Both the position numbers and the translations under genes were made by a program. DNA of 64,000 bases from an uncultured Alphaproteobacteria bacterium. Lineage in GTDB: Bacteria; Pseudomonadota; Alphaproteobacteria; RF32; CAG-239. Where the stretch lies: positions 72,098-136,097 of the forward strand of contig CAKQTH010000001.1 of the NCBI GenBank assembly GCA_934276635.1, written 5' to 3'. Positions 46,583 to 64,000 of this stretch are shown here, in pieces; within the stretch, counting starts at the first letter, position 1; the number at the start of each line of letters is the position of its first letter. The notes beneath the pieces were generated by a model. That model was not told the origin of the DNA and did no database searches. It was given only the letters and a program-made list of their open reading frames with translations.

Positions 46583-47110
46583 ATGGAAGATTCGGACACA
46601 AGAAGCAACGCGGAGCAAAAGCTCGACGAGCAGATTGCGCAGGGAGGAATGTCCAAGGAGCAGGAGGACGCCGCACTTGACAATGCAATTGCGCAAGAGA
46701 CGATGGAAACGCCGACAAAGGCGTATAATGATTTCGGCGAGATATTGAAGGACAAGTCGCTGTCGGAAGAAGAGCAGTCAGCGTATTTAGATATTCTTAT
46801 TGATTAGGAAAAACAGGAACTTAGCGAGAGGGATAAGATATTGCAGCTGAGGGGAATAAAGTCGACGGAGAAGACACCGACGAAGAAATCGGGAGGTCAG
46901 CAGAATGCGAACAGCAACGCGGCGCAGCAGGCAATGATGGCCAAAAAACGAGATAATTCAAGGTAAAAGCAAGGCTCCGATGTAAGGGGAAGAGCAAAAA
47001 AGAGCAAGTCGTTGATTAGCGGCGCAAGATGCAGAAAAAAACAAATCGTTGATGAGCAGTCGCGGCGCAGAAAAAATAGCAAGAAAAAACCGGCGGAAAT
47101 CATAAAATGA
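46583..47110 (+). pseudogene. purine-rich reading frame (Lys/Glu/Gln/Arg-rich product) interrupted by in-frame TAG (46805) and TAA (46964); probable decaying gene
   Basis: RBS GGGAGAGG before ATG 46583; the same frame stays otherwise open for 176 codons through two nonsense codons; imperfect about 40-nt tandem repeat at 47006-47085. Confidence 0.35.
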
Positions 47111-47397
47111 AATCAAGCCGTTTTTTTATATTCATACGAAACCTTTGTTTCGCAGTATCAATGAGAGCCTAGCGGGCATTATCATCGAAGTAAGGATCGT
47201 AGATTCCCGGAGTCTTGTCTGCGTGCAAAGCAGCAACAGTGGTAACAAGACCGAGAGTACCATAAACAATAAAAGCTCCTAGTAATATACTCTAAAATTT
47301 TTGGAAGTTAAACTATATAATAGACAGAAATATATCTGGAATAACTATACATTACAACGCGATATATTTTTTGCTATTTAAAAACAAATTCAAGATA

Positions 47398-47970
47398 TTA
47401 TTTAAATGTCACATCTATTTGACAATTGTTTTCTGACGCTTTGCAGTCACATAATGCTGCGGCAATAGATGCAGCCCGTTCTTGAATATCTTTGGCGGAA
47501 TAGGTATTTCCGGTTTTTAAGTGGAAGAAATAGTCGAAAGTTGATGCTCCTCCCCAATCAGCGGTTACAATAGATGAACATGCATCTTTTGAAAGATTGT
47601 AAAATGTCATATAAAATTGGTCAGGCCTATTTTGGTATGATATCAAAAATACGATTCCTCCCATTGCATTTTTTACGCATCCATACTTGTATCCATCTAA
47701 ATCACAATCTTTTACCATTTCTTCAGGAAATACGCCGAGCTGATATCCAGTTTCCAAACTCAATCCTTTATAATTTCCCTGACCGGCAAAAGTTGTACGA
47801 ACATTAGATGTAACAGTCGATAACTGGTCAATCAGCTTGTTCGTTTTATACTTTGCCATAGCTTTTGAGTATCCGGCGATACCGGCAACGGAGAGAACGC
47901 CGACGATTGCGAGTACGCCGAGCATCTCAATCATCGACCGACCGGACTGGTTTGAAATATAGTTTTTCAT
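47398..47970 (-). CDS. type IV pilin-like protein (prepilin-type N-terminal cleavage/methylation domain)
   Basis: class III signal ...SGRSMIEMLGVLAIVGVLSVAGIAGY with Gly(-1) and Glu(+5); C-terminal Cys pairs; 190 aa. Confidence 0.6.
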   Translation of the reverse strand: MKNYISNQSGRSMIEMLGVLAIVGVLSVAGIAGYSKAMAKYKTNKLIDQLSTVTSNVRTTFAGQGNYKGLSLETGYQLGVFPEEMVKDCDLDGYKYGCVKNAMGGIVFLISYQNRPDQFYMTFYNLSKDACSSIVTADWGGASTFDYFFHLKTGNTYSAKDIQERAASIAAALCDCKASENNCQIDVTFK

Positions 47971-49392: not shown

Positions 49393-49402
49393 GGGGGGGG
49401 GG
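49393..49402. repeat. homopolymeric G10 tract within a purine-rich low-complexity stretch
   Basis: gggggggggg at 49393-49402, about 260 nt upstream of the S66 peptidase start; surrounding GA-rich sequence 49300-49450. Confidence 0.9.
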
Positions 49403-49460
49403 AAAAAAAGGGGAAGAAAAAACGGAGAGAAGGGAAGAGTATGAGAAAAGTGTAAAAGCA

Positions 49461-49490
49461 CAAAAAAACCGCCAAAATGGCGGCTTATTT
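49461..49490. terminator. hairpin with flanking A/T runs (possible bidirectional terminator)
   Basis: A7 - CCGCC aaaat GGCGG - CTTATTT. Confidence 0.4.
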
Positions 49491-49706
49491 ATATTGGTCG
49501 GATTGACACCCTCTAAATTAGAAAAGAGATACCATCCGAAAAGCTTATAAAATACTTATAGCAGAAAAGCGCAGAAAACACAAGGCCTTTTTGCATTTTT
49601 TTATAAAAAATTTATCAAAGCGGGCAGACCTTCTAATCCACACTGCAGGGGTTGAGTTTTTGATACTGACCGCTGTGTTTGAAGTCAATTTTTTCATTTA
49701 ATTACA

Positions 49707-50177
49707 ATGACATATACTGCCCGCTTCGGTGATGAAACAAGGCCAAAGGCTTATTATGAGTTGACTTATATCAAATGTGCAGATGTCAGCAGAACTATAG
49801 CTATGGAAGAGACAAGTGAGATAAGGAATCTTCTCTCTCAAATAAAAAATACATTAAATAACATTCCTTACATAGTAGAAGAACAAAAAGGAACTAATTG
49901 GTATATCAAATGGTCAAATGGCATTCTAGAACAAGGAGGAACATATGATAAAGGATCACAAGTTACAGATTGGAGCGTTAATATTACAATGAATGTTGCG
50001 TTCATTAATACAAATTACCAATTAAATTGCCAACTTTATAGATTGGATAATGCAACAGGCTCGATTAACAACCAAGTATTTATCATAAACAGGACATCAT
50101 CGATGTTTACTGCCAGGCCTTATGGTGATGGCTCATCCCGATATATAGATTGGTACGCACGTGGATACTGGAAATAA
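49707..50177 (+). CDS. phage-associated hypothetical protein (possible minor tail protein)
   Basis: 156 aa; first gene of the tail-tip module; no recognisable motif. Confidence 0.4.
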   Translation: MTYTARFGDETRPKAYYELTYIKCADVSRTIAMEETSEIRNLLSQIKNTLNNIPYIVEEQKGTNWYIKWSNGILEQGGTYDKGSQVTDWSVNITMNVAFINTNYQLNCQLYRLDNATGSINNQVFIINRTSSMFTARPYGDGSSRYIDWYARGYWK

Positions 50178-50193
50178 CAGAAAGGAACAGATA

Positions 50194-50736
50194 ATGCCTG
50201 ATACGACGCTTTCAGAAGCACTAAAGGAAGCCTATGCTTCAGCTCCGAGTGATGTAATTTTATTGCACACCCTGGAACTGAGGCATCCGTCTTTTATAGA
50301 TGATCAGGGCCGACCGACAGCTATCTGGGTCGTGCGTGATCACGTTAACCACACCTGCACGCTTGAAAACTCGGCTCCGCTCAATCCTGGAGAGGCTGTT
50401 GAGTTTATTGCCATGGCGTTTGATCTGGAATTGCCACCGGTCAACAACACGCCGACACCTGAGATTTCGGTCACGATCGACAACGTTTCAACTGAAATGA
50501 TTGCTTATCTTGACCGGGCTATTGAGACACAGGATATGATCGAGCTGACATACCGGTCATATCTGTCTGACGACCTGACAACGCCACAGATGGACCCGCC
50601 GATAACCTTGGTTATTACTGATATTCATGTGGACTGCTATAAAATAACGGCTACAGCCCGCATGATGGACATCGGCAACAAGTCGTTTCCAAGTGAAAAC
50701 TATACCGTTAAAAACTATCCGGGATTAACACGATGA
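50194..50736 (+). CDS. phage minor tail protein (gpL-like position; possibly DUF1833 family)
   Basis: about 180 aa, RBS AAAGGAAC; sits immediately upstream of the NlpC/P60 and J-like genes as in lambda L-K-I-J. Confidence 0.4.
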   Translation: MPDTTLSEALKEAYASAPSDVILLHTLELRHPSFIDDQGRPTAIWVVRDHVNHTCTLENSAPLNPGEAVEFIAMAFDLELPPVNNTPTPEISVTIDNVSTEMIAYLDRAIETQDMIELTYRSYLSDDLTTPQMDPPITLVITDIHVDCYKITATARMMDIGNKSFPSENYTVKNYPGLTR

Positions 50737-51137
50737 CACATTTTGCTTGTAAATATATAGGCTTGCCCTGGGTTGCCGGTGCGCAAGGCCCTGATGAATT
50801 TGACTGTTGGGGAATGGTGCGCTGGATCCTGAAGCACGAATACGGCATAGATGTGCCGGCGGTAAATGTTAATCCGGATAATCTTCGGAGCGTTTTAGTT
50901 GCGTTTAAAGAGGATCCTGCATTCCGGGCGTTTAATGAAGTTGAAAAACCGCAAGACGGTGATGTTGTTCTGCTTCGTCAGTCAAAACATCCGGTTCATG
51001 CCGGCTTATGGTTAGATGCAGACGGCGGTGGTGTTTTACATTGTTGCCGCGATGCCGGTGTTATCTTTCAAGATTTGCCATCAATGCGTCTGTGCGGGTG
51101 GCAAATAGACAGCTATTATCGAGTAAAAGGAAAATAA
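50733..51137 (+). CDS. phage NlpC/P60-family cell-wall peptidase (lambda gpK-like)
   Basis: 134 aa; catalytic Cys in FDCWGMVRW, His in HPVHAGLWL, second His near C-terminus (VLHCC). Confidence 0.7.
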   Translation: MTHFACKYIGLPWVAGAQGPDEFDCWGMVRWILKHEYGIDVPAVNVNPDNLRSVLVAFKEDPAFRAFNEVEKPQDGDVVLLRQSKHPVHAGLWLDADGGGVLHCCRDAGVIFQDLPSMRLCGWQIDSYYRVKGK

Positions 51138-53372
51138 ATGATTTACTTTTCACACATTACAAACCCTTTTCAGCCGAATAAGGGTCGGATAGACAATGTC
51201 CTTGATGACGGCAAAACCGTTTGGGACATGGTCCGGGAACAGAAAGTGGACCTTTCGCGCCCGACAATATGCATGATAGACGGTGACGCAGTCCTCAGGA
51301 AGTTTTGGAACGATACCGTTCAGCCGAAATCCTTGGTCTGCTTCATCACTTTGCCACAAGGCGGTGGCGGTAAAAAGTCATCAAACCCGATTCAGGTTGT
51401 TTTGATGGTGGCCGTTGTTGTTGCATCTGTTTATACGGGCGGTGCTGTGGCGGCGGCCTATGGTGCTGTTTGGGGTAGCGTTGCGGCGGCGGCAGTTTCC
51501 ATTGGCGGAAGCTTTCTCGTCAACACATTCGTTCCACCACCTAAGGCCTCTCTTAACGGGTCCGGTTCGTCAAACTCCATAGCGGCACAAAGTCCGACTT
51601 ACTCCTTGCAGGCACAGGGTAATCAGGCCCGACTTGGCAACCCAATACCGGTCATTTACGGACGACACCTGATTTATCCGGATTTTGCCAGTCAGCCTTA
51701 TTACGCTTACGCCAACGATGAACAATACGTTTTTCAGGTTCATTGTATTGGCCAAGGTGAATACAACATCGAAAAAATCCGAATTGAGGACACGCCGATC
51801 AGCTCGTTTGAAGAGATAACCTATCAGATCATCAATCCGGGCGAAACAAACACCTTATTCCGTGATGATGTGGTGACTTCGCCTGAGGTTGCCGGTCAGG
51901 AACTTCTAAAAGGAAACACGATCGGACCGTTTGTCTTGAATCCGACCGAAAGTGAAATTGACCGGGTCGAGATAGATGTTGCTTGTCAGCGCGGCCTTTA
52001 TTATGCAAACGACAGCGGTGGTTTGAATACAAAATCGGTCCAATGGCAGATAGATGCCCGAAAAATTGATGATGAGGACAACGCGCTGGGTGACTGGTTT
52101 ACTCTTGGTACCGAAACAATTTCAGCGAATACCGTCAACGGAATTTACCGGACATTTGGTTATTCTGTAGCCAAAGGCCGATACGAGGTCCGGGCTACCC
52201 GGTTAGATGACAAAGACACATCTTCCCGCGCTGGTCACGAACTCAGATGGGCCTCGGCAAAAGGCTTTATTGTATCGACGCCGGATTACGGGAACGTAAC
52301 CTTGCTCGCAATTAAAATGAAAGCAACCAACAACCTGTCACAAAGGTCAAGCCGAATGGTGAACTGTATCGTGACAAGGAAGTTGCCGACATGGTCGCCA
52401 AGCGGTGGCTGGACAACTAAACAGCCGACCCGGTCAATTGCTTGGGCCATTGCAGATGTTTTGAAAGCCAGTTATGGTGCCGGTCTGACGGATAAGTCCA
52501 TAGATTTGCCGGGCCTTTACCGGTTAGATCAGACTTGGACGGCGCATGGCGACACCTTTAACGGAGTGTTTGACAGTAAGCTGACCATATATGAGGCCTT
52601 ATCAAAGATCTGTAAAGTCGGCCGGTCTGTTCCTTATATTCAAGGCGGCATTGTCCGGTTTGTCCGGGACGAGCCAAAATCCATACCGGTTGCTCTGTTC
52701 GGGCCGAGGAACATCGTTAAAAACAGCCTGACAATTCAATACATCATGCCGTCAGAAGATACGGCGGACAGCGTTTGCGTTCAGTATTTTTCGGACCGGA
52801 CTTGGAAGAACTCGGAAATAACAGGAAGTTTTGCGGGATCCAGCTCAGATAAGACGGCAACTGTTGAGCTTTTCGGCTGTACCGATAAAAACCAAGCTCT
52901 CCGGGAGGCCATCTATATGGCGTTGGCTAACCGATATCGCCGGCGCATTGTGACATTTTCAACCGAACTGGAAGGTCTGATTCCGAGCTATGGGGATTTA
53001 ATCTCGATCACACACGATATGCCGCATTGGGGAACCGGCGGTGAAATCCTGTCAAAAAATGACATGACTTTAACGCTATCGGAACCGGTTGAGTTTACCG
53101 AGGGTCAAACTCACTATTTAGCCTTACGAACCAGAACTGGGGAACTATCCGGGCCATATCGGGTAAAAGCCGGATCGCTTCCGACAGAAGTTATTTTACT
53201 GGATATGCCCGATATTCCTATTGATACTGGGACCAATGCAGAACGAACTCATTTTGCCTTTGGAACCCAAGACAAATGGGGAACATTAGCTCGTGTAACA
53301 GGAATTAAACCGCGCTCCGGCAAGGTTGAAATTACTGCCGTCATTGAGGACAGCAGAGTTCACGCCAATTAA
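51138..53372 (+). CDS. phage tail host-specificity protein (gpI-like N-terminus fused to gpJ-like tail-tip domain)
   Basis: 744 aa; N-terminal Gly-rich hydrophobic segment GGGGKKSSNPIQVVLMVAVVVASVYTGGAVAAAYGAV resembling the lambda gpI C-terminus; central GNPIPVIYGRHLIYPDFASQPYYAY...RYEVRATRLDD resembling the J/GTA-g15 'putative phage tail' domain. Confidence 0.65.
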   Translation: MIYFSHITNPFQPNKGRIDNVLDDGKTVWDMVREQKVDLSRPTICMIDGDAVLRKFWNDTVQPKSLVCFITLPQGGGGKKSSNPIQVVLMVAVVVASVYTGGAVAAAYGAVWGSVAAAAVSIGGSFLVNTFVPPPKASLNGSGSSNSIAAQSPTYSLQAQGNQARLGNPIPVIYGRHLIYPDFASQPYYAYANDEQYVFQVHCIGQGEYNIEKIRIEDTPISSFEEITYQIINPGETNTLFRDDVVTSPEVAGQELLKGNTIGPFVLNPTESEIDRVEIDVACQRGLYYANDSGGLNTKSVQWQIDARKIDDEDNALGDWFTLGTETISANTVNGIYRTFGYSVAKGRYEVRATRLDDKDTSSRAGHELRWASAKGFIVSTPDYGNVTLLAIKMKATNNLSQRSSRMVNCIVTRKLPTWSPSGGWTTKQPTRSIAWAIADVLKASYGAGLTDKSIDLPGLYRLDQTWTAHGDTFNGVFDSKLTIYEALSKICKVGRSVPYIQGGIVRFVRDEPKSIPVALFGPRNIVKNSLTIQYIMPSEDTADSVCVQYFSDRTWKNSEITGSFAGSSSDKTATVELFGCTDKNQALREAIYMALANRYRRRIVTFSTELEGLIPSYGDLISITHDMPHWGTGGEILSKNDMTLTLSEPVEFTEGQTHYLALRTRTGELSGPYRVKAGSLPTEVILLDMPDIPIDTGTNAERTHFAFGTQDKWGTLARVTGIKPRSGKVEITAVIEDSRVHAN

Positions 53373-53385
53373 GAAAGGACACATC

Positions 53386-53628
53386 ATGGATTGGATTCAA
53401 TTTTTACAGATCATCTGCGTACCGGCCTTTGGCTGGTTTTTTTATAAACTCGGGGAGCAACGCAAGGAGATTAAAACCCTCGAGCGTGACCTCAACGAGT
53501 TCAAAGTTGCGGTGGCCAAGGAATATGCCACTCAGGTTAACATCAATCGCATGGAGACAAAGATTGATGAATTACATCAGCTTTTATGGGAGATGCACAA
53601 TGAACACACCACGCGGCATAAGAAATAA
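53386..53628 (+). CDS. phage small membrane protein (N-terminal TM plus coiled coil; holin or holin-associated)
   Basis: 81 aa; RBS GAAAGGA; TM FLQIICVPAFGWFFY then charged coiled-coil. Confidence 0.45.
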   Translation: MDWIQFLQIICVPAFGWFFYKLGEQRKEIKTLERDLNEFKVAVAKEYATQVNINRMETKIDELHQLLWEMHNEHTTRHKK

Positions 53629-54007
53629 TAACCCCGGCAACATCCGTTGGGGTTCGGACTGGAAAGGATTAAAAAAGGACGGGAAACAGCAAGACCCGTC
53701 CTTTTGTGTATTTGAAACGCCTGAATACGGTATCCGAGCGTTGGCTAAATTACTGCGGAACTATCAGCGGCTTTATGGCCTGAACACACCTTATAGGATT
53801 ATCAGCCGGTACGCACCACCAACCGAAAACGAAACAGTTTCATATATAGACAGCGTGTCCCGGCAGTTAAACAGCACTCCGGACACACCGGTCGACCTTT
53901 CGGAAGATGGTGTCTTGCTGGTCTTTATTAAGGCAATCATCAGACATGAGAACGGCATACAACCATACTCTAATGAACCTCTATTGAAAGGAATACAAAT
54001 GGCATGA
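53600..54007 (+). CDS. phage protein with conserved RGIRNNNPGNIR motif (candidate cell-wall-active or virion protein)
   Basis: 135 aa; RBS GGGAG; start overlaps the previous gene out of frame; ATGA stop/start overlap with the next gene. Confidence 0.45.
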   Translation: MNTPRGIRNNNPGNIRWGSDWKGLKKDGKQQDPSFCVFETPEYGIRALAKLLRNYQRLYGLNTPYRIISRYAPPTENETVSYIDSVSRQLNSTPDTPVDLSEDGVLLVFIKAIIRHENGIQPYSNEPLLKGIQMA

Positions 54008-54222
54008 AAAAACGGCTTTGGATCCCGGTCCTCGGATGGATCTTGTGTTATGGTTTTTTGCACAACTGTCTGATAGCCCCTATAACGGGTCTGCCGGTAG
54101 TGGATTGGGAATATTTATTAACGGCCATGGGCATTTTACTCGGTGTCAGTGGCGCACGAGATATTGGATTAAAGGAAAGAAAAACACAAGATGTGGTATC
54201 AGATCACAAACCTTTGGAATAA
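54004..54222 (+). CDS. holin-like small membrane protein (2 TM)
   Basis: 72 aa; TM1 IPVLGWILCYGFL, TM2 YLLTAMGILLGVSGA, charged C-terminus. Confidence 0.5.
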   Translation: MKKRLWIPVLGWILCYGFLHNCLIAPITGLPVVDWEYLLTAMGILLGVSGARDIGLKERKTQDVVSDHKPLE

Positions 54223-54412
54223 AGGTAAATACTGGATAATCGCCGGTGCGGTGGCCGTTTTATACATACTCGGCTATCGGCGCGGCAAGGAAAAAGAACA
54301 AGTGAAAGTAATGAAAGGAACGGTGGACAATGTCAAAACGGCTAAAAGAAGTCGGGATAGCCTGGCTGATCCTAAGCGCGTTAAGCGGTTGCACGACAAA
54401 TATAAACGGTGA
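54191..54412 (+). CDS. Rz-like inner-membrane spanin (i-spanin)
   Basis: 73 aa; N-terminal TM YWIIAGAVAVLYILGY then Lys/Arg/Glu-rich periplasmic helix. Confidence 0.45.
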   Translation: MWYQITNLWNKGKYWIIAGAVAVLYILGYRRGKEKEQVKVMKGTVDNVKTAKRSRDSLADPKRVKRLHDKYKR

Positions 54413-54524
54413 TTTTTGCCTTTTATACGAACCGGTGTATGCGGATTATGAGCATGACACCCCGGAAACAATACATCAAATTGATAGGAATAACGTAGTT
54501 TATGACGATTTATGTACAAATTAA
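54330..54524 (+). CDS. Rz1-like outer-membrane lipoprotein spanin (o-spanin), overlapped with the Rz-like gene in a different frame
   Basis: 64 aa; lipobox LSALSGC; starts inside the Rz-like ORF and extends past it (overlapped spanin architecture). Confidence 0.45.
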   Translation: MSKRLKEVGIAWLILSALSGCTTNINGDFCLLYEPVYADYEHDTPETIHQIDRNNVVYDDLCTN

Positions 54525-54592
54525 AAGATTTTGTTTGTATTCTCAGATATAATTTGATAGTATGTCTAATTAGCAAAATTGAAAGAGGTGTT

Positions 54593-55480
54593 ATGTTAAT
54601 ACTGAATATCAATGGGCCAATAAATTCTGGTAAATCAACCGTTTCTAAAATTTTGGTGAATATGTTCCCTAACACCACTTTTATTGAAGTGGATGAGCTG
54701 ATGAGTGATGAGGAACAAGCAAAGCTAGGATTATCCCTTCAACAAGGATGGCGGGAACGTCATAAACGATTGAAGCAGAAATTGCAAGCTCTTAAAAAAT
54801 CGCGTGCGTATGAAACTGTGATTTTTGCCTATCCGATTGCTGACAATACCTATCAAGATTGGAAAGCCTTGAAGGATGAACAGACAAAGTTTTTAAACAT
54901 TACCCTTGCACCCAATTTAGAGGAATGTCTAAAAAATCGTGGTACGCGAGAGTTGGACGATTGGGAACGGAACAGAATCAAAGAAATGTATGAGGAAGGC
55001 TATCAAAATCGTCCTTATTCCGACTTTATTATCAATAATGATAACCAAACACCCGCAGAAACCGCTGAGATTATTAAAGATTTTATTGAACATGCTTTAT
55101 CCCCGAAACAGCAATGGTTACATTTGGTTGAAAGGCGTTGGCCGGCTTTGTTAAATGGCGAAAAGACTTCCACATTCCGTTTGAATGAAGGATTTGTTCA
55201 TAAAGGATTTTTGGTCTATAAAGACTGCCCAAAAGAACAGTGGGCTGAGGTTGTTTATGTAACACAAATTTATTATGTGCCTTTGCGCCAAGCTATTGAA
55301 ATTGACGGATATGATGAACATACACCGGACATGGAAACAGCACTAAAACAAATGCGTGTTCATTACCCAGATATTACTTTGGATACGCCCATTTTATTTG
55401 CTCAGCATTTAGGCGCCCCAGAAACAAAGCAAAAATATCCACAAGAAGTGGCAAAAATTTTAAAGGAAATGGAAAAATGA
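54593..55480 (+). CDS. P-loop kinase (CPT/AAA_33-like) fused to a C-terminal ASCH domain
   Basis: RBS GAAAGAGGTG; Walker A NGPINSGKSTVS; C-terminal ASCH-like LLNGEKTSTFRL... Confidence 0.55.
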   Translation: MLILNINGPINSGKSTVSKILVNMFPNTTFIEVDELMSDEEQAKLGLSLQQGWRERHKRLKQKLQALKKSRAYETVIFAYPIADNTYQDWKALKDEQTKFLNITLAPNLEECLKNRGTRELDDWERNRIKEMYEEGYQNRPYSDFIINNDNQTPAETAEIIKDFIEHALSPKQQWLHLVERRWPALLNGEKTSTFRLNEGFVHKGFLVYKDCPKEQWAEVVYVTQIYYVPLRQAIEIDGYDEHTPDMETALKQMRVHYPDITLDTPILFAQHLGAPETKQKYPQEVAKILKEMEK

Positions 55481-55947
55481 GCTTACCAATTTGCTATCTT
55501 ATTTGTGGATTTTTGGGAGCTGGTAAGACAACTTATTCCCAAAAACTTTCAAAAGAAACGGGGGCCATTCATCTGAATCCAGATGAATGGTGTATGAAAT
55601 TGTTTTCTAAAGAAGAATATGAGCAAAATTGGAGCAAATGTTTTTCTGAAACAATAGAGCATCTTTGGAAAAAAGCAGAGGAATATGCTAAAAATGGAAA
55701 ATCCATTATTTTCGATATGGGATTTTGGACAAAACAAAGTCGGGATGAAGCAACACAAAGGGCAAAGGATTTGGGATTCAATCCTGTTATACATTTTTTG
55801 AATGTGCCAGATGAGATTTTGAAACAGCGGATTAGTGCTAGGAAAGGGACAATTGCAGAATATAATTTAAAGCATTTTGATGAATTAAAGAAGCAATTTG
55901 AAGAACCAGAAGAAAAAGAACAATATGTAAGAATAGAAAATTATTGA
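55477..55947 (+). CDS. P-loop kinase (AAA_33 / predicted small-molecule kinase family)
   Basis: Walker A CGFLGAGKTTYS, 156 aa; ATGA overlap with the upstream gene. Confidence 0.6.
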   Translation: MSLPICYLICGFLGAGKTTYSQKLSKETGAIHLNPDEWCMKLFSKEEYEQNWSKCFSETIEHLWKKAEEYAKNGKSIIFDMGFWTKQSRDEATQRAKDLGFNPVIHFLNVPDEILKQRISARKGTIAEYNLKHFDELKKQFEEPEEKEQYVRIENY

Positions 55948-55963
55948 TAAAAAGGAAGAAATA

Positions 55964-56449
55964 ATGCGTAAATCTGCTCGAGCAATCATAATTACAAAAG
56001 AAAACAAACTGCTATTGATGAAACGCACAAAACCGAATGAGGTATATTATGTTACAATCGGTGGTGGTATTGAAGATAGTGAAACATCTGAGCAAGCATT
56101 ATTGCGTGAGTTAAAAGAAGAAAGCGGAAGCATTGTTGATAAACCAGTTTTTGCTTTTCATTATGATGATATTGAAAGGCAAAATAGTGTGGATTTTTAT
56201 GTTTGTAAGGAAATTAATCGTACAAAACCGACAGGAATAGAATGTACAAAGCTAAACATGTCGGGTAATCAATATGAACTTACAGAAATAAGTAAAGATC
56301 AAATTAATAATATTCCACTTAAACCAGATGCTATCAAGGATAAGATTATCAAGATTTTTACTGATCAAGTAGATAATACTCTCCTTGAACCAAAGCTGAT
56401 TAAAAATAAAATCATCAAAAATTTTGAACATATTATTGTTAGGATTTAA
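55964..56449 (+). CDS. NUDIX hydrolase
   Basis: Nudix box GGGIEDSETSEQALLRELKEESG; RBS AAAGGAAG. Confidence 0.75.
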   Translation: MRKSARAIIITKENKLLLMKRTKPNEVYYVTIGGGIEDSETSEQALLRELKEESGSIVDKPVFAFHYDDIERQNSVDFYVCKEINRTKPTGIECTKLNMSGNQYELTEISKDQINNIPLKPDAIKDKIIKIFTDQVDNTLLEPKLIKNKIIKNFEHIIVRI

Positions 56450-56563
56450 TACATTTCTCTTACATACAATTATAATATTTAATTGGTGTAATTTAAAAAA
56501 ATATTGCCTTAAATATTCTAATATGTTAAAATGCCGGCAGGTTAAAATAAGAGAGTTTCCCAT

Positions 56564-57154
56564 ATGAAAAAGAAGATATATTTGTGTCGACATGCAGAAA
56601 CTATTTGGAATATTCCAGAAAATCAGCACCTACAGGGGTGGTCAGATAGTGATTTAAGCGAAAAGGGAAGAAATCAGACTTTGTTATTAAAAGATTTTCT
56701 CTTGAGAAGTAATATCTTAAAAATTTATACAAGCCCTTTGCTGCGATGTATTAGGACATTAAAACCTTTTTTAGAAACTAGAAATGTTGCTTGTGAAACA
56801 TTGGATCAATTAAAAGAGATAAATTATGGTTTATATGATGGACTGCCTTCGCATGAAGCTCGTCTTAAATATAGAGATTTTTTTACAGTTTACGATAATT
56901 CTCAAGATCCACAATCAAATACAATCCAATTTCCAAAAGGTGAAAGCAGGTTCGATGCTGCAAAACGCTTGTTGGAGGTATTAAAACATATCGTTACACA
57001 GGATGGTACGTGCTTTATTATGACGCATGGAGGGGTCCTGAGTTCTCTATTCCTTCTGTTATTTAATAAAAAACGAGAATTTAATAACTGTGAAGTTATA
57101 GAGCTTTGGTATGATAATTTACAAAAAAAATTTATAATTGAGGGGGATAAATGA
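56564..57154 (+). CDS. histidine phosphatase superfamily protein (phosphoglycerate-mutase-like branch 1)
   Basis: catalytic RHAET at residues 9-13 (LCRHAETIWN), 196 aa. Confidence 0.7.
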   Translation: MKKKIYLCRHAETIWNIPENQHLQGWSDSDLSEKGRNQTLLLKDFLLRSNILKIYTSPLLRCIRTLKPFLETRNVACETLDQLKEINYGLYDGLPSHEARLKYRDFFTVYDNSQDPQSNTIQFPKGESRFDAAKRLLEVLKHIVTQDGTCFIMTHGGVLSSLFLLLFNKKREFNNCEVIELWYDNLQKKFIIEGDK

Positions 57155-58800
57155 TAGAACTGCGTACAAAAAGTCCTTTAACAATAGTAGGGGTTAATTT
57201 AGGTCATGACGGTGGTGCGTGTATAATCCATAAAAATAAAATTATTAGTATTTCCGAGGAACGTTTGACCCGAAATAAAAAAGGATATGGATATCTATCT
57301 GCTTTGTTTTACTGTTTAAAGTCGCTTAAAATTACTGTAAAAGATATAGATTATGTTGCATTTAGTACTTATCATAAAAGACTACCTAAAGGGTATTTAG
57401 GCTTATTTGAAAGTTTGGGATTTAATAAAAAACAATCAATTATTATTGATCATCATGAATCTCATGCGTATGGTTCCTATTATTTATCAGGATTTGACGA
57501 GGCTCTGGTTGTTGTAATGGATGGCATGGGAAATGAAAATATGTCCGAAAGTTACTATCTGGCAAAAGGAAATAAAGTTAAAATTATCGGACATAATGAT
57601 TTAGATCGCTCTATATATGCTGGAGTAGGACGAGCATATGAATCGTTTACTAACTTCATTGGCTGGCCTACAACATGTGCTGGAAAAACAATGGGATTAT
57701 CTGCTTATGGGAAAGGAAACTACAAAAATATAAGATTGTTTAAAATAGATGATAATTTAAGGGTTTCCGCAGATTTGAAGAAAAAATATGGTGCTTCTGC
57801 TGAAGAATTTCTCTCAAGAAAGCATTTATCTGAACTTCTAAAAGAAAAAGGGAAGTTATCTGATGCAAAAGAAGTCGCAAAATTGATTCAAGATAAGACA
57901 GAAGATCTTTTTGTAGATCTAATAAAAAAATTAGTAGAGAAAACAGGCATTAGAAAGTTATGCTTAACAGGCGGATGTGCCCTTAATTGTGTTGCAAATC
58001 AAAAGTTATTAGATTTAGGCATTGTCGATGAAATATTTGTACCTCCATACCCCTGTGATACAGGACAAGCTGTTGGAAATGCCATAGCGGGGCTTGCTAA
58101 GAAAAAGATATATATAAAAGAAAGATTACCACACCCGTATTTTGGGAGGATGTATGATCGTAAAGAGATCTTAGATGTTTTACAAAAGAAACAGGAAATT
58201 TATCCACTTCCTTATGAAATAAAAATTAAGGATTATGACTTTAAAGAAATTCTTGATGAAAAAAAATATAACGAAATAATAGCAGACTATATTAAACATG
58301 ATCTTGTAGTCGGCTGGTTTCAAGGAGATTCCGAATTAGGACCGCGTGCCTTAGGTCATCGCAGTATTTTAGCAAATCCGACGTCCAAAACGATGAAGGA
58401 TCACATAAATATGAAAGTGAAGAAAAGAGAACCGTTCAGGCCTTTTGCAGCAAGTCTTTGCGATGATGATGTAGAAACATATTTCAAAAGTGGGCTTCAC
58501 GATAGATTTATGTCTTTTGCAATAGATTTAAAGGAAAAATATATTCCATTAATTCCAGCTGTTTTACATGTTGATAATACCTGTCGCCTTCAATCAGTTT
58601 CAAAAAAAGAGAACCCGAAGTATTATTCCTTAATAAAAGAACTAAAGAAAAAAATTGGTGTTCCAATGGTTTTAAATACTTCTTTTAACGAGGATAAAGA
58701 ACCAATAGTGGAAACCCCTGTTGATGCTTTAAGGCATTTAGCTGTTGGTAATATTGATGTTCTTGCTATGGATGATTTTATTGTGAGGTTAAAGAAATGA
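57151..58800 (+). CDS. NodU/CmcH-family O-carbamoyltransferase (TobZ/NovN-like)
   Basis: HHESH metal motif, GWFQGDSELGPRALGHRS, KREPFRPFA, HVDNTCRLQSV, NTSFN: the full set of family signatures; 549 aa. Confidence 0.85.
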   Translation: MIELRTKSPLTIVGVNLGHDGGACIIHKNKIISISEERLTRNKKGYGYLSALFYCLKSLKITVKDIDYVAFSTYHKRLPKGYLGLFESLGFNKKQSIIIDHHESHAYGSYYLSGFDEALVVVMDGMGNENMSESYYLAKGNKVKIIGHNDLDRSIYAGVGRAYESFTNFIGWPTTCAGKTMGLSAYGKGNYKNIRLFKIDDNLRVSADLKKKYGASAEEFLSRKHLSELLKEKGKLSDAKEVAKLIQDKTEDLFVDLIKKLVEKTGIRKLCLTGGCALNCVANQKLLDLGIVDEIFVPPYPCDTGQAVGNAIAGLAKKKIYIKERLPHPYFGRMYDRKEILDVLQKKQEIYPLPYEIKIKDYDFKEILDEKKYNEIIADYIKHDLVVGWFQGDSELGPRALGHRSILANPTSKTMKDHINMKVKKREPFRPFAASLCDDDVETYFKSGLHDRFMSFAIDLKEKYIPLIPAVLHVDNTCRLQSVSKKENPKYYSLIKELKKKIGVPMVLNTSFNEDKEPIVETPVDALRHLAVGNIDVLAMDDFIVRLKK

Positions 58801-59867
58801 ACAATTTAACATTATCTCAACCAGAATTAAAACAACGAATTGTAATAGGGCGTGATTTTTATCTAGAAGAATTAGAAAAATTCATAGCAGTATCTGATTA
58901 TAAATCTATATTTTTAATTTATGATACAAATTTAAAAGAAGAAAAAAAGAAAATTGCCAATTTATTAAAAAATAAACGTTTTTCATCATATGGAATTAGA
59001 GCAAATCAAGAAAAAAGTACTAACTTGGTAATCTCGGCAATAAAAAAAATGCAAATTTTTGGTTGCCTTAGAAACACGTTATTAATTGCTCTTGGTGGTG
59101 GTTTTATAGGAGATATTAGTGGTGTAGTCTCATCTGTATATATGCGTGGAATAGACTATATCCAGATAGGAACAACTGCTATGTCACAATTTGATGCAAT
59201 AGTACAAAAAGTAGCTGTTAATGTGAATCATTATAAAAATATTATGGGCGCATTTCATTCGCCAATATTAACTTTTTGCGATACAGAATTCGTTGAAAAA
59301 GACCCTTCATGTTTAAATTCGTTTTGTGAAGTAATCAAACACAAAATTATTGTAAAAAGTTCTTTGAAACAACTTCAAGAGCTAGAAAATAAAGAGCTAA
59401 AAAACGGAGAATTTCCAAAAATTATTTATGATTCTTTGAAAGTAAAATTGAATTGCGCAGCTCATGATCCATTTGATACTCTTGGAATACAAAAAAAACT
59501 GTCCTTAGGGCATACTATTGCGAATATCATAGAAACAAAAACATCTTTAACTCATGGGGAAGCTGTTTGGATTGGATTGCTAGTGGCTATAAGAGTTTCA
59601 CTATTTTTATATCCTAAATCTAATTATTTAGCTGATCTAGACGTTTTTACAAACAATTTTATAGTAAAACACAAAGTGAAACTCCCTAAAATAACTCTAA
59701 AGAAAGACGATATTCTACCACTCCTAAAGAAGGATAAAATATCTATGGATAAGGGGTTATCTATGGTGATAATCAATGAGAAAAATGAAGTTTCTATAAA
59801 AAATGATTTGTCTATTGATACAATTATCTCTGCGATGAGAAAAACACCTTATATAAGAGTAAAATAA
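58797..59867 (+). CDS. 3-dehydroquinate synthase-like sugar-phosphate cyclase (DHQS/DOIS/EEVS superfamily), divergent
   Basis: GGGFIGDISGVVSSVYMRGIDYIQIGTTAMSQFDAIVQKVAVN, KNIMGAFHSP, metal-binding GHTIANIIE...HGEAVWIG; 356 aa. Confidence 0.7.
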   Translation: MNNLTLSQPELKQRIVIGRDFYLEELEKFIAVSDYKSIFLIYDTNLKEEKKKIANLLKNKRFSSYGIRANQEKSTNLVISAIKKMQIFGCLRNTLLIALGGGFIGDISGVVSSVYMRGIDYIQIGTTAMSQFDAIVQKVAVNVNHYKNIMGAFHSPILTFCDTEFVEKDPSCLNSFCEVIKHKIIVKSSLKQLQELENKELKNGEFPKIIYDSLKVKLNCAAHDPFDTLGIQKKLSLGHTIANIIETKTSLTHGEAVWIGLLVAIRVSLFLYPKSNYLADLDVFTNNFIVKHKVKLPKITLKKDDILPLLKKDKISMDKGLSMVIINEKNEVSIKNDLSIDTIISAMRKTPYIRVK

Positions 59868-59872
59868 ATTTT

Positions 59873-60949
59873 TTAGAAATTTGTAACGGTTGGTATTTCT
59901 TTTAGGCTCTTAATGTCTTTCTTTTGCTTATACCATTCAAACAGCCAGTTCCACATTTTATAAATAAATACTTTATCCTCTTTTATATAGCCCAATACAT
60001 TAGAAACGAGGAAACAGCGGCAAAACATTCGAGAAACAAATTCTTTTCTCCAATCAAAATATTTAGAGCATTCTGCCACAGTCGGTAAAAACATTTTATC
60101 AAAAAAGACATCAAAAGTGAGTTTTGCGTCCACCAAATTAATCGGGCCAGTTAGACTACTGTTATTTTTTATAAATATGGGGTTATATTTCATTAGTAAA
60201 AGGCGCTGAGAACTCAAAAACCAGAAACATATACTAATATCGCATAAAATTGGATTTATTCCGCACTGGTCTAAATCCCAAAACAACCAATCATATGAAT
60301 AATTAAAATCATATAAATCGCCGTGTGACAACGTTGTCAATGTAATTGAATCCGATTTGAAGTATTCTATTACAGTCGCAATAGATTCTGAAATACTATC
60401 AAGTAAATCAGGTGCCAGTCGTGAAATATCTTGAAGAAGTAGCAAATAATCATTTTGGTAAAAATTTACGGCCCTTCCTTTAAACAAGCGATCTTCAAAA
60501 AAAGTCGCCGAAGGATAGTTGTCTGTTTTTTCAGAGGATTCAATATTTTTTAAATATAGGTGCGATAATTTATTGAAAAATTGTGTGATTTTATTCCTTT
60601 TATGAATATCTCTATCATACCCTACATACACAAACCCATTCTTTTCTTTTGCTTGAATATATTCATAAACAAGAACTGTCGTCTTGTTTTTTCCAAGAAT
60701 TGAGTCCAGTATTTTAGGCGTAGGAAATAAAAGACTAAAATTTTTTAGTCGTATAAAATCACTTTGTGAAAAATTATCATAAAAAAACTTTAAAAAATAT
60801 TTATTATTTTCAATTGTTAGTATTCCGCTTTTTATTTTAGAAGGTCTGTCCTTGTCGAAAAACGGTAGAAAATCAAACCCATGAATTTTATTTTCTATAA
60901 TTAAATTGATACATGACGTTAATTGACAATGTGTCACACTTACACTCAT
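59873..60949 (-). CDS. aminoglycoside-phosphotransferase (APH)/choline-kinase-fold kinase
   Basis: Brenner catalytic motif LSHGDLYDFN plus downstream D (WDLD); 358 aa; only minus-strand gene in the island. Confidence 0.65.
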   Translation of the reverse strand: MSVSVTHCQLTSCINLIIENKIHGFDFLPFFDKDRPSKIKSGILTIENNKYFLKFFYDNFSQSDFIRLKNFSLLFPTPKILDSILGKNKTTVLVYEYIQAKEKNGFVYVGYDRDIHKRNKITQFFNKLSHLYLKNIESSEKTDNYPSATFFEDRLFKGRAVNFYQNDYLLLLQDISRLAPDLLDSISESIATVIEYFKSDSITLTTLSHGDLYDFNYSYDWLFWDLDQCGINPILCDISICFWFLSSQRLLLMKYNPIFIKNNSSLTGPINLVDAKLTFDVFFDKMFLPTVAECSKYFDWRKEFVSRMFCRCFLVSNVLGYIKEDKVFIYKMWNWLFEWYKQKKDIKSLKEIPTVTNF

Positions 60950-61081
60950 TTGAGCCTTCCATATTTTTTACATATACTTGCTATTATAAATAATTTGTTA
61001 GAAAGACACAAGAATTTTGTATGTTTTTTTTGTTTTTTAGCAGAAAAACTCAAATAAATATTTTATTTTGATTGAAATTGG

Positions 61082-61089
61082 TGTATAAT
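61082..61089 (+). promoter_or_regulatory. candidate extended -10 promoter element (TGTATAAT) in the divergent intergenic region
   Basis: TGnTATAAT at 61082-61089, 30 nt upstream of ATG 61119. Confidence 0.3.
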
Positions 61090-61118
61090 AATATAAATTC
61101 ATTTTAAGGTATGAAATC

Positions 61119-62297
61119 ATGCATCGGCAATTTGATACATATACGACCTTTTTCGATTTGGGAATAGATCATGCAGATTTTCCATTCTGTTCGTTGGAGT
61201 ACTGTTCTGGTGGATTTAACAAAAAAAGAGCCCATACTAATCGTATTATTTGGAAGAGATTAACTGGACAGGATTTATCAGCAGAAGAAGCTATTCAAGC
61301 TGATAAGTTTATTCAGGGAATAGGTTATGCTGAACAAAAAAAGAAATTTGAACATTGTGCTTTATGTTCGGATACATTTACGTGTGAACCTCTTGTAGAG
61401 TTTTCTGGAAAATTTAATTATTGGGATTTAGCTTTTCCAACAAGCCCATATACTCCAGCAGGAATTATGATTTATTTAAAAGAACGTAAAAAATTAAGAT
61501 TAGAGGTTATTGATGCATTGTCGAAAGAGGCCTTTGAAGAAATTGAGACAATAGCAAACTCCCTTTTTTACATACTAAAAAATGAAATACCCGATCTATG
61601 TGGTGTAAATATACTGTTTCATCAAATTTCGACCTCTCAAGCCTGTTTACATGGGCATGTTGAGCTGATGCTTCACAATATAGACCCTTCTCTTGGATGT
61701 TTTTTAAAGAAACAGCGTCCATTTGATATTTGTGCGAACTACCTAAATAACCAACTTGAAGAAAAAGATAACATATGTTTTTTTACAGAGGGAATTAGAT
61801 TGAATAGTAAATCTTTTTCCGTATTAGAAACAATGAAAATTATTAAAGAATACCGCAATAATACTGTTAATTTATTTAATTTTTTTTCTGAAGTACGTAA
61901 AAATTACTTTAGTAAAACATCTAAACAAAAAAAGGCAAAAGAATTGCTTTCACAAAAAGGGTTTAATTCTACACAAATTGACCAGATATTATTTGATATA
62001 ACACCGGCCCCAATAAATTGTGTATATTTTACTTACTATAGGAATGAATATTTCATTTCTATTATTCCAGAATTAATTTTAAGATCAATACCATTAAGTA
62101 AAATCACAGATGATGAATACTTGTTATACAATTTAAAGTATAATGCCATTCAACCACGTGAAGAAAAGTTTTTTTTAGAAGAAAAGCACCCATTAATACG
62201 ACCAAGTATAAAATTGAGACAAGCAATGCCTGCTGATAAAAAAATATTAATCTTAAAACAAATCGTTCACAATATATTATCAAAGGAGCGTTTATGA
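61119..62297 (+). CDS. hypothetical protein; tentative GalT/HIT-like nucleotidyltransferase
   Basis: 392 aa; N-terminal Cys pair FPFCSLEYCSGG resembling the GalT zinc site; His dyad LHGHVELML resembling the HIT/GalT H-x-H motif; assignment weak. Confidence 0.4.
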   Translation: MHRQFDTYTTFFDLGIDHADFPFCSLEYCSGGFNKKRAHTNRIIWKRLTGQDLSAEEAIQADKFIQGIGYAEQKKKFEHCALCSDTFTCEPLVEFSGKFNYWDLAFPTSPYTPAGIMIYLKERKKLRLEVIDALSKEAFEEIETIANSLFYILKNEIPDLCGVNILFHQISTSQACLHGHVELMLHNIDPSLGCFLKKQRPFDICANYLNNQLEEKDNICFFTEGIRLNSKSFSVLETMKIIKEYRNNTVNLFNFFSEVRKNYFSKTSKQKKAKELLSQKGFNSTQIDQILFDITPAPINCVYFTYYRNEYFISIIPELILRSIPLSKITDDEYLLYNLKYNAIQPREEKFFLEEKHPLIRPSIKLRQAMPADKKILILKQIVHNILSKERL

Positions 62298-63100
62298 TGG
62301 GATTTTCTTTTCTTACATTGCCCCATTCACATTTAGTAAAAATAGTTAGTTTATTAGATAACTTGTCTAATGATGAAAAAGGCTTCCTACGTAAAAGTGG
62401 GGATATTACGATAGACAATGGACATTACTTCATTAAGGAATTGAGAAAAGAACGAATTATTTTTCCTCCAGATCAATACATTAAATTTTATCAGGAGTAT
62501 TATCACAAATTAAATTCCGCTATTGAGACATATCCTTCCTATGGTATGTGGTGTATAGACAATAAAGTATTTGAGGTTCAACCATTTATTGCTAATCAAT
62601 CTATAATGATGAGAGGGACTCTATTGGATTGGAATACCTTAAAAAAGACTTATACAAAAATACTACAAGATATTGATTCAGTTCAAAGAAAATATGGAAC
62701 AAAAGATTTTTCTTTCGTTGGAATTGAAACTGCGATTTGGAATTTTTCAACAGATGGACGTCTGTATGATTTTAATCCTGTGCGCCTATATAATGCAAAT
62801 TGTCTATTTACCACAACAAATGATCCTGATATGCTAGAAAAAACAAAGTTTCGTAATTTCTCGCCTTTTGGAATGAAGGTTAATTTATTAGCAACAGTTG
62901 GAATCGCAGTCAAAAATAAAGATTTTATCTTGCAAAATAATCCAAACAATTGGTTTTTGGAGTTAAAATCGATACTTAGGGATAATCTTAAGGCTCAAGA
63001 TAGTGAAAAAGTCGATCTACTTGAAAATCAAACTGATTTTCCTAAATGGCATCCGTTACAAATAATAAATAATTTCAACAGGGGGGGAAGAAATGGATAA
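62294..63100 (+). CDS. hypothetical protein, degenerate APH-fold kinase paralogue (catalytic His-Gly-Asp not conserved)
   Basis: STDGRLYDFNPVRL aligns with SHGDLYDFNYSYD of the 59873-60949 kinase but lacks the HGD triad; RBS AAGGAG. Confidence 0.45.
   Translation: MMGFSFLTLPHSHLVKIVSLLDNLSNDEKGFLRKSGDITIDNGHYFIKELRKERIIFPPDQYIKFYQEYYHKLNSAIETYPSYGMWCIDNKVFEVQPFIANQSIMMRGTLLDWNTLKKTYTKILQDIDSVQRKYGTKDFSFVGIETAIWNFSTDGRLYDFNPVRLYNANCLFTTTNDPDMLEKTKFRNFSPFGMKVNLLATVGIAVKNKDFILQNNPNNWFLELKSILRDNLKAQDSEKVDLLENQTDFPKWHPLQIINNFNRGGRNG
63081..63087. repeat. G7 homopolymeric tract overlapping the RBS of the IMPase-like gene
   Basis: ggggggg at 63081-63087. Confidence 0.9.
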
Positions 63101-63829
63101 ATATTCGGATTTAGAGAAAATACTGCAAAAATTAATATCCCTTTCTGTTGAAGCTGGAGAACTAGCTAAATCGATTAAAGAAAAAAAAGAATGTGCAGAT
63201 GAAGAAATTGAAATTTTTATCCGTAATAATTTAAAAGACTTCAATTATTCATTTATAGGAGAAGAAACAAAACCTTTTATAAATCAAACTTCTAACCGTT
63301 GTTTTGTTGTCGATCCGATTGATGGCAGTCTGAACTATCAGAATGGTGATGAAAATTGGTGTGTTTCTATATCTCTTATGGAGAATGAAGCGCCGCTTCT
63401 TGGGGTTGTTTTTGTTCCTGAAAAACATATGCTTTTTTACGCGCAAAAAACAAAAGGGGCAAAAATCCTTGATTGTCAGAAACATTCCGAAAGCAGTCTT
63501 GTTATTAAAAAGAAATCAAATTTAATTGAATTATTAGGGGCATCCGACAATTCTACCAAGATCAGAGAAATCTTGCTAAATACTGTTTTAGATAAAAATT
63601 ATATTCGTTTCCGACATACAGGATCCATAGTTGTTGCTTCTTTAAAGCTAATAATGGGGGAGCAAGAGGTATAATATATGGGGGAAAGACTCATTTGCAT
63701 GATATAGCAGCTGTATGGTTAATTGTTAAAGAAAGCGGTGGGGAAACATTCTTTAATAAGGATAAAGGATTGTTTATTGCGACACAGGATAAAGAGACAA
63801 TGGAAAAATTAGAGAGGTTTTATTTATGA
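63093..63829 (+). pseudogene. inositol monophosphatase-family gene split by a +2 frameshift at a G5 run (63680-63684)
   Basis: N-terminal frame 63093-63674 carries the metal motifs FIGEETKPF and FVVDPIDGSLNY; the C-terminal signature HDIAAVWLIVKESGGE (WD-AAG...EAGG) lies in the +2 frame 63677-63829. Confidence 0.55.
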
Positions 63830-64000
63830 TAAAGGATGCAGAATGGAATAATATAAAAGAAATCGTGGCACAATTGAATATTCCAAATGAGTACAGAGAA
63901 GCTATCATATTTGGAATAAAGAAAATCTATAACGTTATGCCTTATAAACCCATTTTTATTGGGATATGTGGTAGTGCCGCGCGAGAAGATATTGTTCCAA
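63828..64000 (+). CDS. nucleotidyltransferase-domain protein (Pol-beta superfamily, ANT/Lnu-like), N-terminal part; continues past window end
   Basis: ...IGICGSAAREDIVP matches the G-S-x-A-R-G nucleotidyltransferase motif; ATGA overlap with the preceding stop. Confidence 0.45.

Follow-up and report, generated by a model that had tools for sequence, protein, structure and literature searches.

A 64,000-nucleotide (nt) stretch of contig CAKQTH010000001.1 from an uncultured Alphaproteobacteria bacterium (assembly GCA_934276635.1), referred to here as the window, carries a 4.83-kb block of phage-derived DNA at positions 49716 to 54545, with its genes on one strand. We are confident that this block is what survives of the right arm of a lambda-like, temperate siphovirus, retained as a defective remnant within an island at a tRNA-Pro gene. 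It is a prophage remnant of a common, well-known kind and a new member of that kind. At least one deletion took all that had lain upstream of the final third of a tail fiber gene, including the tail shaft, head, and packaging genes, and the HU-like gene of the phage has been replaced by cargo DNA at the right end. The replication and lysogeny genes and the integrase were presumably lost with the same deletion or deletions. A sequence-only reading of this DNA had already proposed a defective prophage, and that designation now rests on genome comparison, beyond gene content, because relatives possess complete modules, the left break falls inside a phage gene, and an attachment (att)-like repeat together with an empty-site strain marks the insertion.

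Extent of the remnant and missing modules

The block of same-strand open reading frames (ORFs) lies where the sequence-only reading had placed it. Its GC content (0.46 to 0.49 at 50 to 54 kb) is, as that reading had also noted, higher than that of the neighboring island on its right (0.30 to 0.35), and the DNA on its left stands at 0.38 to 0.39. No frameshifts or stop codons were found in the 8 complete genes of the remnant. These genes are clearly of phage origin, and the essential modules that close relatives keep are gone. The terminator, tube, chaperone, tape-measure, and Dit-like proteins of a relative gave no tblastn match in the 64-kb window, and 40 ORFs scanned outside the block (10 of them at 7 to 38 kb; some small ORFs unscanned) included no integrase and no terminase, with Pfam matches of housekeeping or cargo type only, or none. 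The absence of tube, tape-measure, capsid, and terminase genes upstream of the block, which had been claimed from the letters, was borne out by the searches with tail shaft proteins and by the ORF scans.

Searches for other elements around the block gave little. An Rfam scan of 46 to 56 kb (E ≤ 1) returned a single sub-threshold snoRNA match, and no RNA element was recognized that would account for the purine-rich noncoding stretch in this interval. Promoter-like matches upstream of the remnant were not above chance (12 found versus 11.2 expected from shuffled sequence), and the sole notable feature of the promoter and terminator scan was a hairpin at 49466 to 49486, in host DNA beside the att copy.

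A left breakpoint inside a fiber gene

The first ORF of the block (156 amino acids [aa]; 49707 to 50177) had been taken for a minor tail protein. It consists instead of 3 foreign codons (M-T-Y) followed by the last 153 codons of a 456- to 472-aa fiber gene with a Gp53-like_C domain. In tblastn searches, it aligned only to residues 304 to 456 or 320 to 472 of its 456- to 472-aa orthologues (contigs L011, L009, and L006). It is 99% identical to the C terminus of protein P0001, whose frame extends upstream, on a contig (L036) that also encodes a tape measure, a Dit-like protein, and fiber genes. A blastn comparison of the window with L036 produced one alignment, from 49716 to 54545, with 88% identity overall and a mosaic pattern ranging from 70% to 100%. 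The Gp53-like_C score is weak in the window fragment (E value of 0.004) and reaches an E value of 3e-12 in L009.

Phage homology therefore begins within a gene, position 49716 corresponding to fiber residue ~304 to 320. The ATG at 49707 sits 9 nt outside this homology, in unrelated flanking DNA, and because it falls outside, the ORF is read as foreign codons joined to a fiber end. The 208-nt segment that supplies the ATG (49508 to 49715) is missing from the empty-site strain and has no homology to any related phage fetched.

Related phages and prophages keep what the remnant lacks

Homologues of the 744-aa tail-tip (J) protein of the block share 85 to 93% identity in 11 species-representative metagenome-assembled genomes (MAGs) and 52 to 54% in Micavibrio-like MAGs. 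The 11 MAGs of the close set come from human, rabbit, roe deer, and rumen sources, the nearest genomes bearing the label uncultured Alphaproteobacteria or Rhodospirillales, and this phage lineage is widespread among uncultured gut Alphaproteobacteria. The segment from the DUF1833 gene to Rz1 is conserved throughout the close set, in host flanks that are not syntenic with the window. Loci L001 to L011 and L036 and the 52.5-kb IMG/VR contig UViG_3300042816_000265 (J protein, 79% identical) carry the same tail-tip and lysis block at 79 to 93% amino acid identity. In contrast to the window remnant, however, the relatives keep tape-measure, tube, and terminator genes and an HU-like gene after Rz1.

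Two of these relatives illustrate the gene content upstream of the block. L009 encodes a tail terminator, a Phage_tube_2 tube protein, a chaperone, an 881-aa tape measure, and a Dit-like protein, as well as three fiber-like proteins with Gp53-like_C domains. Upstream of its tail genes, the IMG/VR contig encodes a large terminase, a portal, a head protease, a decoration protein, and a major head protein; terminase, portal, and head genes are all lacking in the window remnant. The full head and tail sets of the relatives indicate that the lineage is a complete lambda-like siphovirus.

Some relatives are themselves decayed. A 1.4-kb deletion in L010 (11793/11788) joins J residue 601 to Rz1, the J protein of L019 is truncated at residue 441 (11323), and the NlpC/P60 gene of L011 is split by a frameshift (9595 to 9997). 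Such independent decay fits ordinary prophage erosion. Separately, a 7.7-kb contig with the phage block (L002; CAVDQP010000054.1) is binned in a MAG labelled Holdemanella biformis (Firmicutes), a public-record placement that probably reflects misbinning.

The insertion site and the tRNA-Pro island

The region is an insertion, because an att-like repeat lies at the 3' end of the tRNA-Pro gene and a strain with an empty site exists. The flanking repeats for which the sequence-only reading had suggested a search were found as 20-nt copies, one at 49488 to 49507 and the other (19 of 20 nt identical) beside an intact tRNA-Pro gene where the island ends, ~10 kb beyond the window (contig L047). The window copy marks the tRNA-distal edge of the island, where only 13 nt of the tRNA gene plus 7 nt are retained. 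The empty-site strain (L037 and L041) was found via exact lookup of the LD-carboxypeptidase protein. Its host flank is 99.6% identical to the window (96.3% in the LD-carboxypeptidase segment), and its gene order is LD-carboxypeptidase, intact tRNA-Pro(CGG), GT2/DUF1796 glycosyltransferase, DUF3078, tig, and prfC; no phage DNA lies among them.

Island-bearing contigs of the L047 type were found via glycosyltransferase P0003, and their island DNA overlaps the extension of the window. Through overlapping contigs, the island was read end to end from 49508 to ~74150 (window-equivalent coordinates; ~24.6 kb). The remnant starts 208 nt inside the tRNA-distal edge; the 208 nt and the 4.83-kb remnant are followed by two kinase genes, a NUDIX hydrolase, and a histidine phosphatase; then by a carbamoyltransferase, a dehydroquinate synthase (DHQS)-like cyclase, unknown ORFs, and an inositol monophosphatase (IMPase)-like gene; and finally by an SNF2 helicase, a ResIII/RE_endonuc protein, and an N6_N4 methylase. 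Neither an integrase nor head, tail shaft, or packaging genes were found in the whole att-bounded island, and a PHROG scan of its unannotated ORFs revealed no hidden phage genes. The claim that an integrase is absent thus extends from the scanned ORFs of the window to the entire island, and no intact prophage, whose continuation nearby would have refuted the sequence-only reading by its own terms, adjoins the block. Neither the left-end 208 nt nor the att core matched any of 113 related phage and prophage loci, and the right island end had one weak match among them (117 nt at 72%), within methylase genes.

The right edge and a cargo slot after the spanins

Homology with seven relatives ends ~13 to 21 nt past the Rz1 stop codon. 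Those relatives run 373 nt further into an HU-like DNA-binding gene, whereas the window enters cargo instead. The HU-like gene and the terminal 373 nt of the relatives were searched for in the window plus 10 kb beyond it and were not found, and the HU gene was not found anywhere in the island. The lysis cassette does abut the AT-rich island, as the sequence-only reading had stated. Its right end for the remnant, the Rz1 stop at 54524, was close, but phage DNA probably extends slightly past it, since a gene encoding a P-loop kinase with an ASCH domain (kinase-ASCH) follows Rz1 in L004 as well.

Between 54173 and 55449, a segment that includes the junction of Rz1 with kinase-ASCH, the L004 prophage shares 84% nucleotide identity with the window, and 80 nt at the beginning of the NUDIX gene match as well. 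Because of this common junction, the kinase-ASCH gene of the window probably came in with the phage. Beyond the shared junction, L004 has 4.6 kb of cargo (including GNATs and NUDIX) and then a truncated HU gene, a resolvase, and a type IIG restriction-modification (R-M) system. Other relatives carry an AlwI-type R-M system (L036) or an SNF2/ResIII helicase with an N6_N4 methylase (L059). The variable cargo that follows the spanins in L004 and other relatives makes this slot a cargo hotspot of the phage lineage.

A serine recombinase of ~210 aa (resolvase/invertase type) was observed right after the HU-like gene in two species, with opposite orientations (L004, 18500 to 19132, minus strand; L009, 13848 to 14483, plus strand). 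In none of the relatives did a tyrosine integrase appear in the 10 kb next to the lysis end.

Tail-tip and lysis genes

The features of the remnant and its edges are listed in Table 1. At the gpL position, the sequence-only reading was right about the place; of the families that it had listed for checking, Phage_tail_L was not matched, and DUF1833 was the only Pfam family recovered there (E value limit of 0.01). The likely start of the DUF1833 gene is ATG 50194, giving 180 aa, and public assemblies annotate a 180-aa gene here. The NlpC/P60 peptidase at the gpK position agrees with the assignment made earlier, as does the 744-aa protein, which had been described as a gpI-like N terminus combined with a J-like tail tip. 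This protein scores 502 bits against the NCBIfam TipJ family NF040662 (E value of 1.6e-150; cutoff of 140) and also matches phrog_31 "central tail fiber J" (E value of 3e-130), Pfam Phage-tail_3 (3e-17), and FNIII-A_GpJ (8e-17). Its gpI likeness comes from phrog_32 "tail assembly protein" only (4e-8; aa 78 to 191), with a Gly-rich hydrophobic segment at ~aa 70 to 130 and a hydrophobic stretch computed at aa 81 to 120. No gpM-like (Phage_min_tail) ORF was found in the block, the ORF upstream of the DUF1833 gene being the fiber fragment. The gpJ/TipJ hub of a lambda-type tail tip is therefore present, and the gpL (Phage_tail_L) and gpM components are not.

Table 1. Positions of the prophage remnant, its genes, and its edges in the window
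Feature	Position	Strand	Evidence
att-like direct-repeat copy, TTTATATTGGTCGGATTGAC	49488..49507		Reverse complement is the last 13 nt of tRNA-Pro(CGG) plus 7 nt downstream
Island-end DNA, 208 nt, supplying the fortuitous ATG 49707	49508..49715		blastn boundaries
Same-strand ORF block	49707..54524	+	ORF listing
Tail fiber 3' third, 153 codons, Gp53-like_C	49716..50177	+	tblastn, Pfam
DUF1833 minor tail protein, gpL position	50161..50736	+	Pfam DUF1833, E 1.2e-40; phrog_396 "minor tail protein," E 8e-42
NlpC/P60 tail-associated peptidase, 134 aa, gpK position	50733..51137	+	Pfam NLPC_P60, E 3.4e-10; phrog_329 minor tail protein, E 1e-19
744-aa TipJ/gpJ-like tail-tip protein with fused gpI-like segment	51138..53372	+	NCBIfam, PHROG, Pfam
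80-aa protein, hydrophobic N terminus, charged C terminus, first gene of the lysis block	53386..53628	+	Weak PHROG matches; 87 to 97% conserved in relatives
Endolysin, 135 aa, starts MNTPRGIRNNNPGNIRW	53600..54007	+	phrog_873, E 1.8e-55; PDB 7q47 "Endolysin," E 3.9e-25
72-aa membrane protein, holin candidate	54004..54222	+	Hydrophobic aa 9 to 25; 90 to 96% conserved in relatives
73-aa i-spanin candidate, charged tail	54191..54412	+	Weak phrog_1026 Rz-like spanin match, E 0.0097
64-aa o-spanin lipoprotein, Rz1-like	54330..54524	+	phrog_1275 "Rz-like spanin," E 4e-6; lipobox LSGC at residue 18
Right homology breakpoint versus related prophages	54537..54545		blastn versus L001, L005, L008, L009, L010, L011, L036
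P-loop kinase/ASCH-domain gene, likely start MLILNINGPINSGKST	54593..55480	+	Pfam ASCH, AAA_18

The lysis cassette, including the Rz/Rz1-like spanins, had likewise been recognized from the letters; the i-spanin match is weak. As expected for a Gram-negative lysis cassette, an endolysin is accompanied by an o-spanin lipoprotein whose gene overlaps that of the i-spanin candidate; the 73-aa and 64-aa genes overlap in different frames, and both frames are conserved in relatives. The hydrophobic N terminus of the 73-aa protein was judged by eye, with no 17-residue window above the hydrophobicity threshold. A second hydrophobic stretch in the 72-aa protein was also judged by eye, and neither the 72-aa nor the 80-aa protein had a holin-family hidden Markov model match in the Pfam, PHROG, and NCBIfam scans, the 72-aa protein matching no model at all.

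Comparison with known phages and prophages

Among cultured phages, Achromobacter phage JWX (Steinhofvirus) and Burkholderia phage BcepGomr come closest, with 36 to 39% identity. Both are complete phages, whereas the window block is a remnant. Their J proteins align over 99% of the 744-aa protein; that of JWX is 1160 aa long, with a C-terminal extension lacking in the 744-aa protein. The gene order of JWX is like that of the relatives, with a tape measure, structural proteins, a tail fiber, DUF1833-type and NlpC-type minor tail proteins, and J, and its lysis cassette lies ~3 kb further downstream.

The block resembles the lambda tail tip (gpM-gpL-gpK-gpI-gpJ) in its small tip proteins, NlpC/P60 peptidase, gpI-like segment, and FNIII-A_GpJ hub. 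In contrast to lambda, it has no gpM, DUF1833 replaces Phage_tail_L, and the gpI-like segment is fused to J, which itself lacks the C-terminal receptor-binding part (39 bits with the lambda TipJ model, against a cutoff of 1950). Lambda gpK also has an MPN domain, whereas the window peptidase has no Pfam match besides NLPC_P60.

Cryptic or defective lambdoid prophages are well known in enterobacteria, for example Rac, DLP12, Qin, and e14 of E. coli K-12. The window remnant is like them in being a partial gene set left at an integration site by internal deletions, in which tail fiber or lysis genes are often kept, with att repeats and strain-variable occurrence. It differs in its uncultured gut alphaproteobacterial host, in having no integrase or regulatory genes left, and in sharing its att-bounded island with an AT-rich biosynthetic cluster and an R-M/SNF2 block.

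Alternative explanations

The intactness of the genes raises the question of whether the lysis cassette, alone or together with the tail-tip proteins, has been domesticated, i.e., selected for controlled lysis, vesicle release, or defence against related phages. All 8 complete genes lack frameshifts and stop codons while some relatives have visibly decayed, and, in several human cohorts, none of the assemblies that bear the island is without the remnant. These assemblies are near clonal, however (0 to 1 single-nucleotide polymorphism [SNP] per 4.8 kb), and selection is then not required to explain intactness; the entire island is missing from another strain of this species, and the promoter-like matches upstream are at chance level. 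We know of no stand-alone role for a tip complex without a tube or tape measure, and we regard domestication as very unlikely. Still less probable, to the point of deserving almost no weight, is a relic of a gene transfer agent (GTA) of the RcGTA type, a label that the sequence-only reading had offered alongside that of decayed prophage. The host is alphaproteobacterial, and the g13-g15 layout of RcGTA is superficially like the succession of a small protein, an NlpC/P60 protein, and a large Phage-tail_3 protein, a likeness of general layout. The small protein, however, matches DUF1833 and no other Pfam family at an E value of 0.01 (GTA models were not searched by name). RcGTA is a conserved, vertically inherited cluster without att sites and with a g12/g13-type tip and small-capsid head, features not recognized here (no GTA-named models searched), whereas the block is strain variable and att bounded at a tRNA gene, host flanks differ between species, and the relatives are 40- to 50-kb phages with full TerL, a portal, a lambda-type head with a decoration protein, and their own lysis cassette. 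Nor do we see more than the slightest chance that the remnant is an assembly or binning artifact or belongs to an intact prophage whose other genes lie just outside the region. The sequence is metagenome derived, and misbinning does occur, as with the Firmicutes MAG above. The same junctions, however, recur in 22 contigs that come from different samples and from megahit, SPAdes, and Logan assemblies. A 281.8-kb scaffold matches the window at 100% identity over 10.9 kb, and the reading of the island extended as far as the intact tRNA gene and the host genes beyond it.

How much of the island the phage accounts for is a different question, and one that refines rather than replaces the reading as a defective prophage. 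It is possible, though we lean against it, that the entire 24.6-kb island is one degraded prophage, with the AT-rich cluster and the R-M/SNF2 block as its post-lysis cargo. In relatives, variable cargo directly follows either Rz1 or the HU gene, the kinase-ASCH junction recurs in L004, and R-M or SNF2 systems occur in L004, L036, and L059. Against this, 19.6 kb of cargo plus a genome of ~40 kb would, by our estimate, exceed the packaging capacity of such a head, so that much of the cargo probably arrived after immobilization; the difference in GC content (30% versus 46 to 49%) argues for a different origin, and the island ends match no related phage. A more elaborate version seems unlikely to us: remnant and cargo would form one phage-delivered unit, in which the post-spanin hotspot took up the kinase-ASCH and NUDIX genes and possibly seeded the cyclase/carbamoyltransferase cluster and the R-M/SNF2 block, the tail-tip and lysis genes persisting because the island is young or because the host uses them.

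Several observations count against the interpretation that we favor, a defective prophage. Having 8 of 8 complete genes intact would also fit retention by selection, and with 0 to 1 SNP among assemblies, neutral decay and purifying selection are indistinguishable. The remnant faces the tRNA gene, so that the lost integrase end would be tRNA distal, which is the less usual orientation, and more than one rearrangement may be involved. In addition, the island ends match no relative, and the att repeats may have been made by this phage or by another integrative element. Finding GTCAATCCGACCAAYATAAA in the attP of the relatives would assign the island to the phage family, and any other attP would speak for a composite origin.

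Reproducibility and genomic context

The truncated ORF and the host junction occur in 22 contigs from different cohorts, assembled with megahit, SPAdes, or Logan, and the same junction in independently assembled contigs rules out an assembly artifact. The window is 100% identical to the 281.8-kb scaffold, which is from a human gut metagenome, over the 10.9 kb compared, and island-bearing assemblies differ by 0 to 1 SNP across the 4.8-kb remnant. Upstream, the host genes are rpoZ, spoT, DUF2062, acpS, lepB, rnc, era, a type IVb-like pilin gene, and the LD-carboxypeptidase gene, with glycogen metabolism genes, der, bamB, transketolase, ATP synthase, and priA further upstream.

Three sites in this host DNA vary. 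A poly-G/poly-A tract at 49393 to 49410, in the upstream region of the LD-carboxypeptidase gene, has G10 or G11 depending on the assembly, and in L041 the deletion is larger; either a slippage-prone sequence or a sequencing artifact could underlie this variation. Nearly all inter-assembly SNPs (~25 in 200 nt) fall in the purine-rich noncoding stretch at 46860 to 47070, downstream of era, and the alignment of otherwise identical assemblies breaks at 47031 to 47040, which suggests a repeat or hypervariable element. The pilin (PilS/Bundlin domains; 47398 to 47970, minus strand) is the one host protein that diverges between the island-bearing and island-free strains, with 190 versus 193 aa and an interval (47397 to 47704) that is unalignable at the DNA level.

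Within the island, a 30%-GC cluster spans 55477 to 64000 of the window and continues ~4 kb beyond it (L033, 10603 to 12938). It encodes an AAA_33/zeta-like kinase, the NUDIX hydrolase, the histidine phosphatase, the carbamoyltransferase, the cyclase (DHQ-synthase-like, of the sugar-phosphate type), three ORFs without a family, the inositol-monophosphatase-like protein, and more unknown ORFs. Judging from these families, the cluster looks like a horizontally acquired set for the synthesis or modification of a cyclitol- or aminocyclitol-type compound. The R-M/defence block adjoins the intact tRNA-Pro gene (L033, 13065 to 20569, equivalent to L047, 12287 to 19832) and comprises the SNF2 helicase (579 aa), the ResIII plus RE_endonuc protein (1013 to 1050 aa, with length varying by assembly), ORFs of 77 and 158 aa, and the N6_N4 methylase (483 aa), which is preceded by a separate 61-aa ORF. 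By eye, this ORF looks like a detached methylase N terminus, and with a C-rich run nearby, phase variation of the methylase region is possible.

Fate and significance of the remnant

In the scenario that we favor, one or more deletions would have removed the left 30 to 40 kb of the prophage. What remains is predicted from its gene content to be immobile, unable to form particles, to excise, or to replicate, and its expression would probably be poor with the native late promoter lost. A recent truncation could explain why the 8 complete genes are intact, island-bearing assemblies being virtually identical. The remnant would then be a passive fossil or, at most, a store of tail-tip and lysis alleles with which infecting relatives could recombine.

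The significance of the remnant beyond annotation is small. The region should be masked as phage derived and not annotated as a GTA or as a novel secretion or tail-like system. Overall, exact boundaries can now be given for a prophage fossil and for the 24.6-kb tRNA-Pro island around it in an uncultured gut alphaproteobacterium, and the comparison documents a widespread, uncharacterized lineage of lambda-like phages, present in human, rabbit, and ruminant guts, with a cargo hotspot after its lysis genes.

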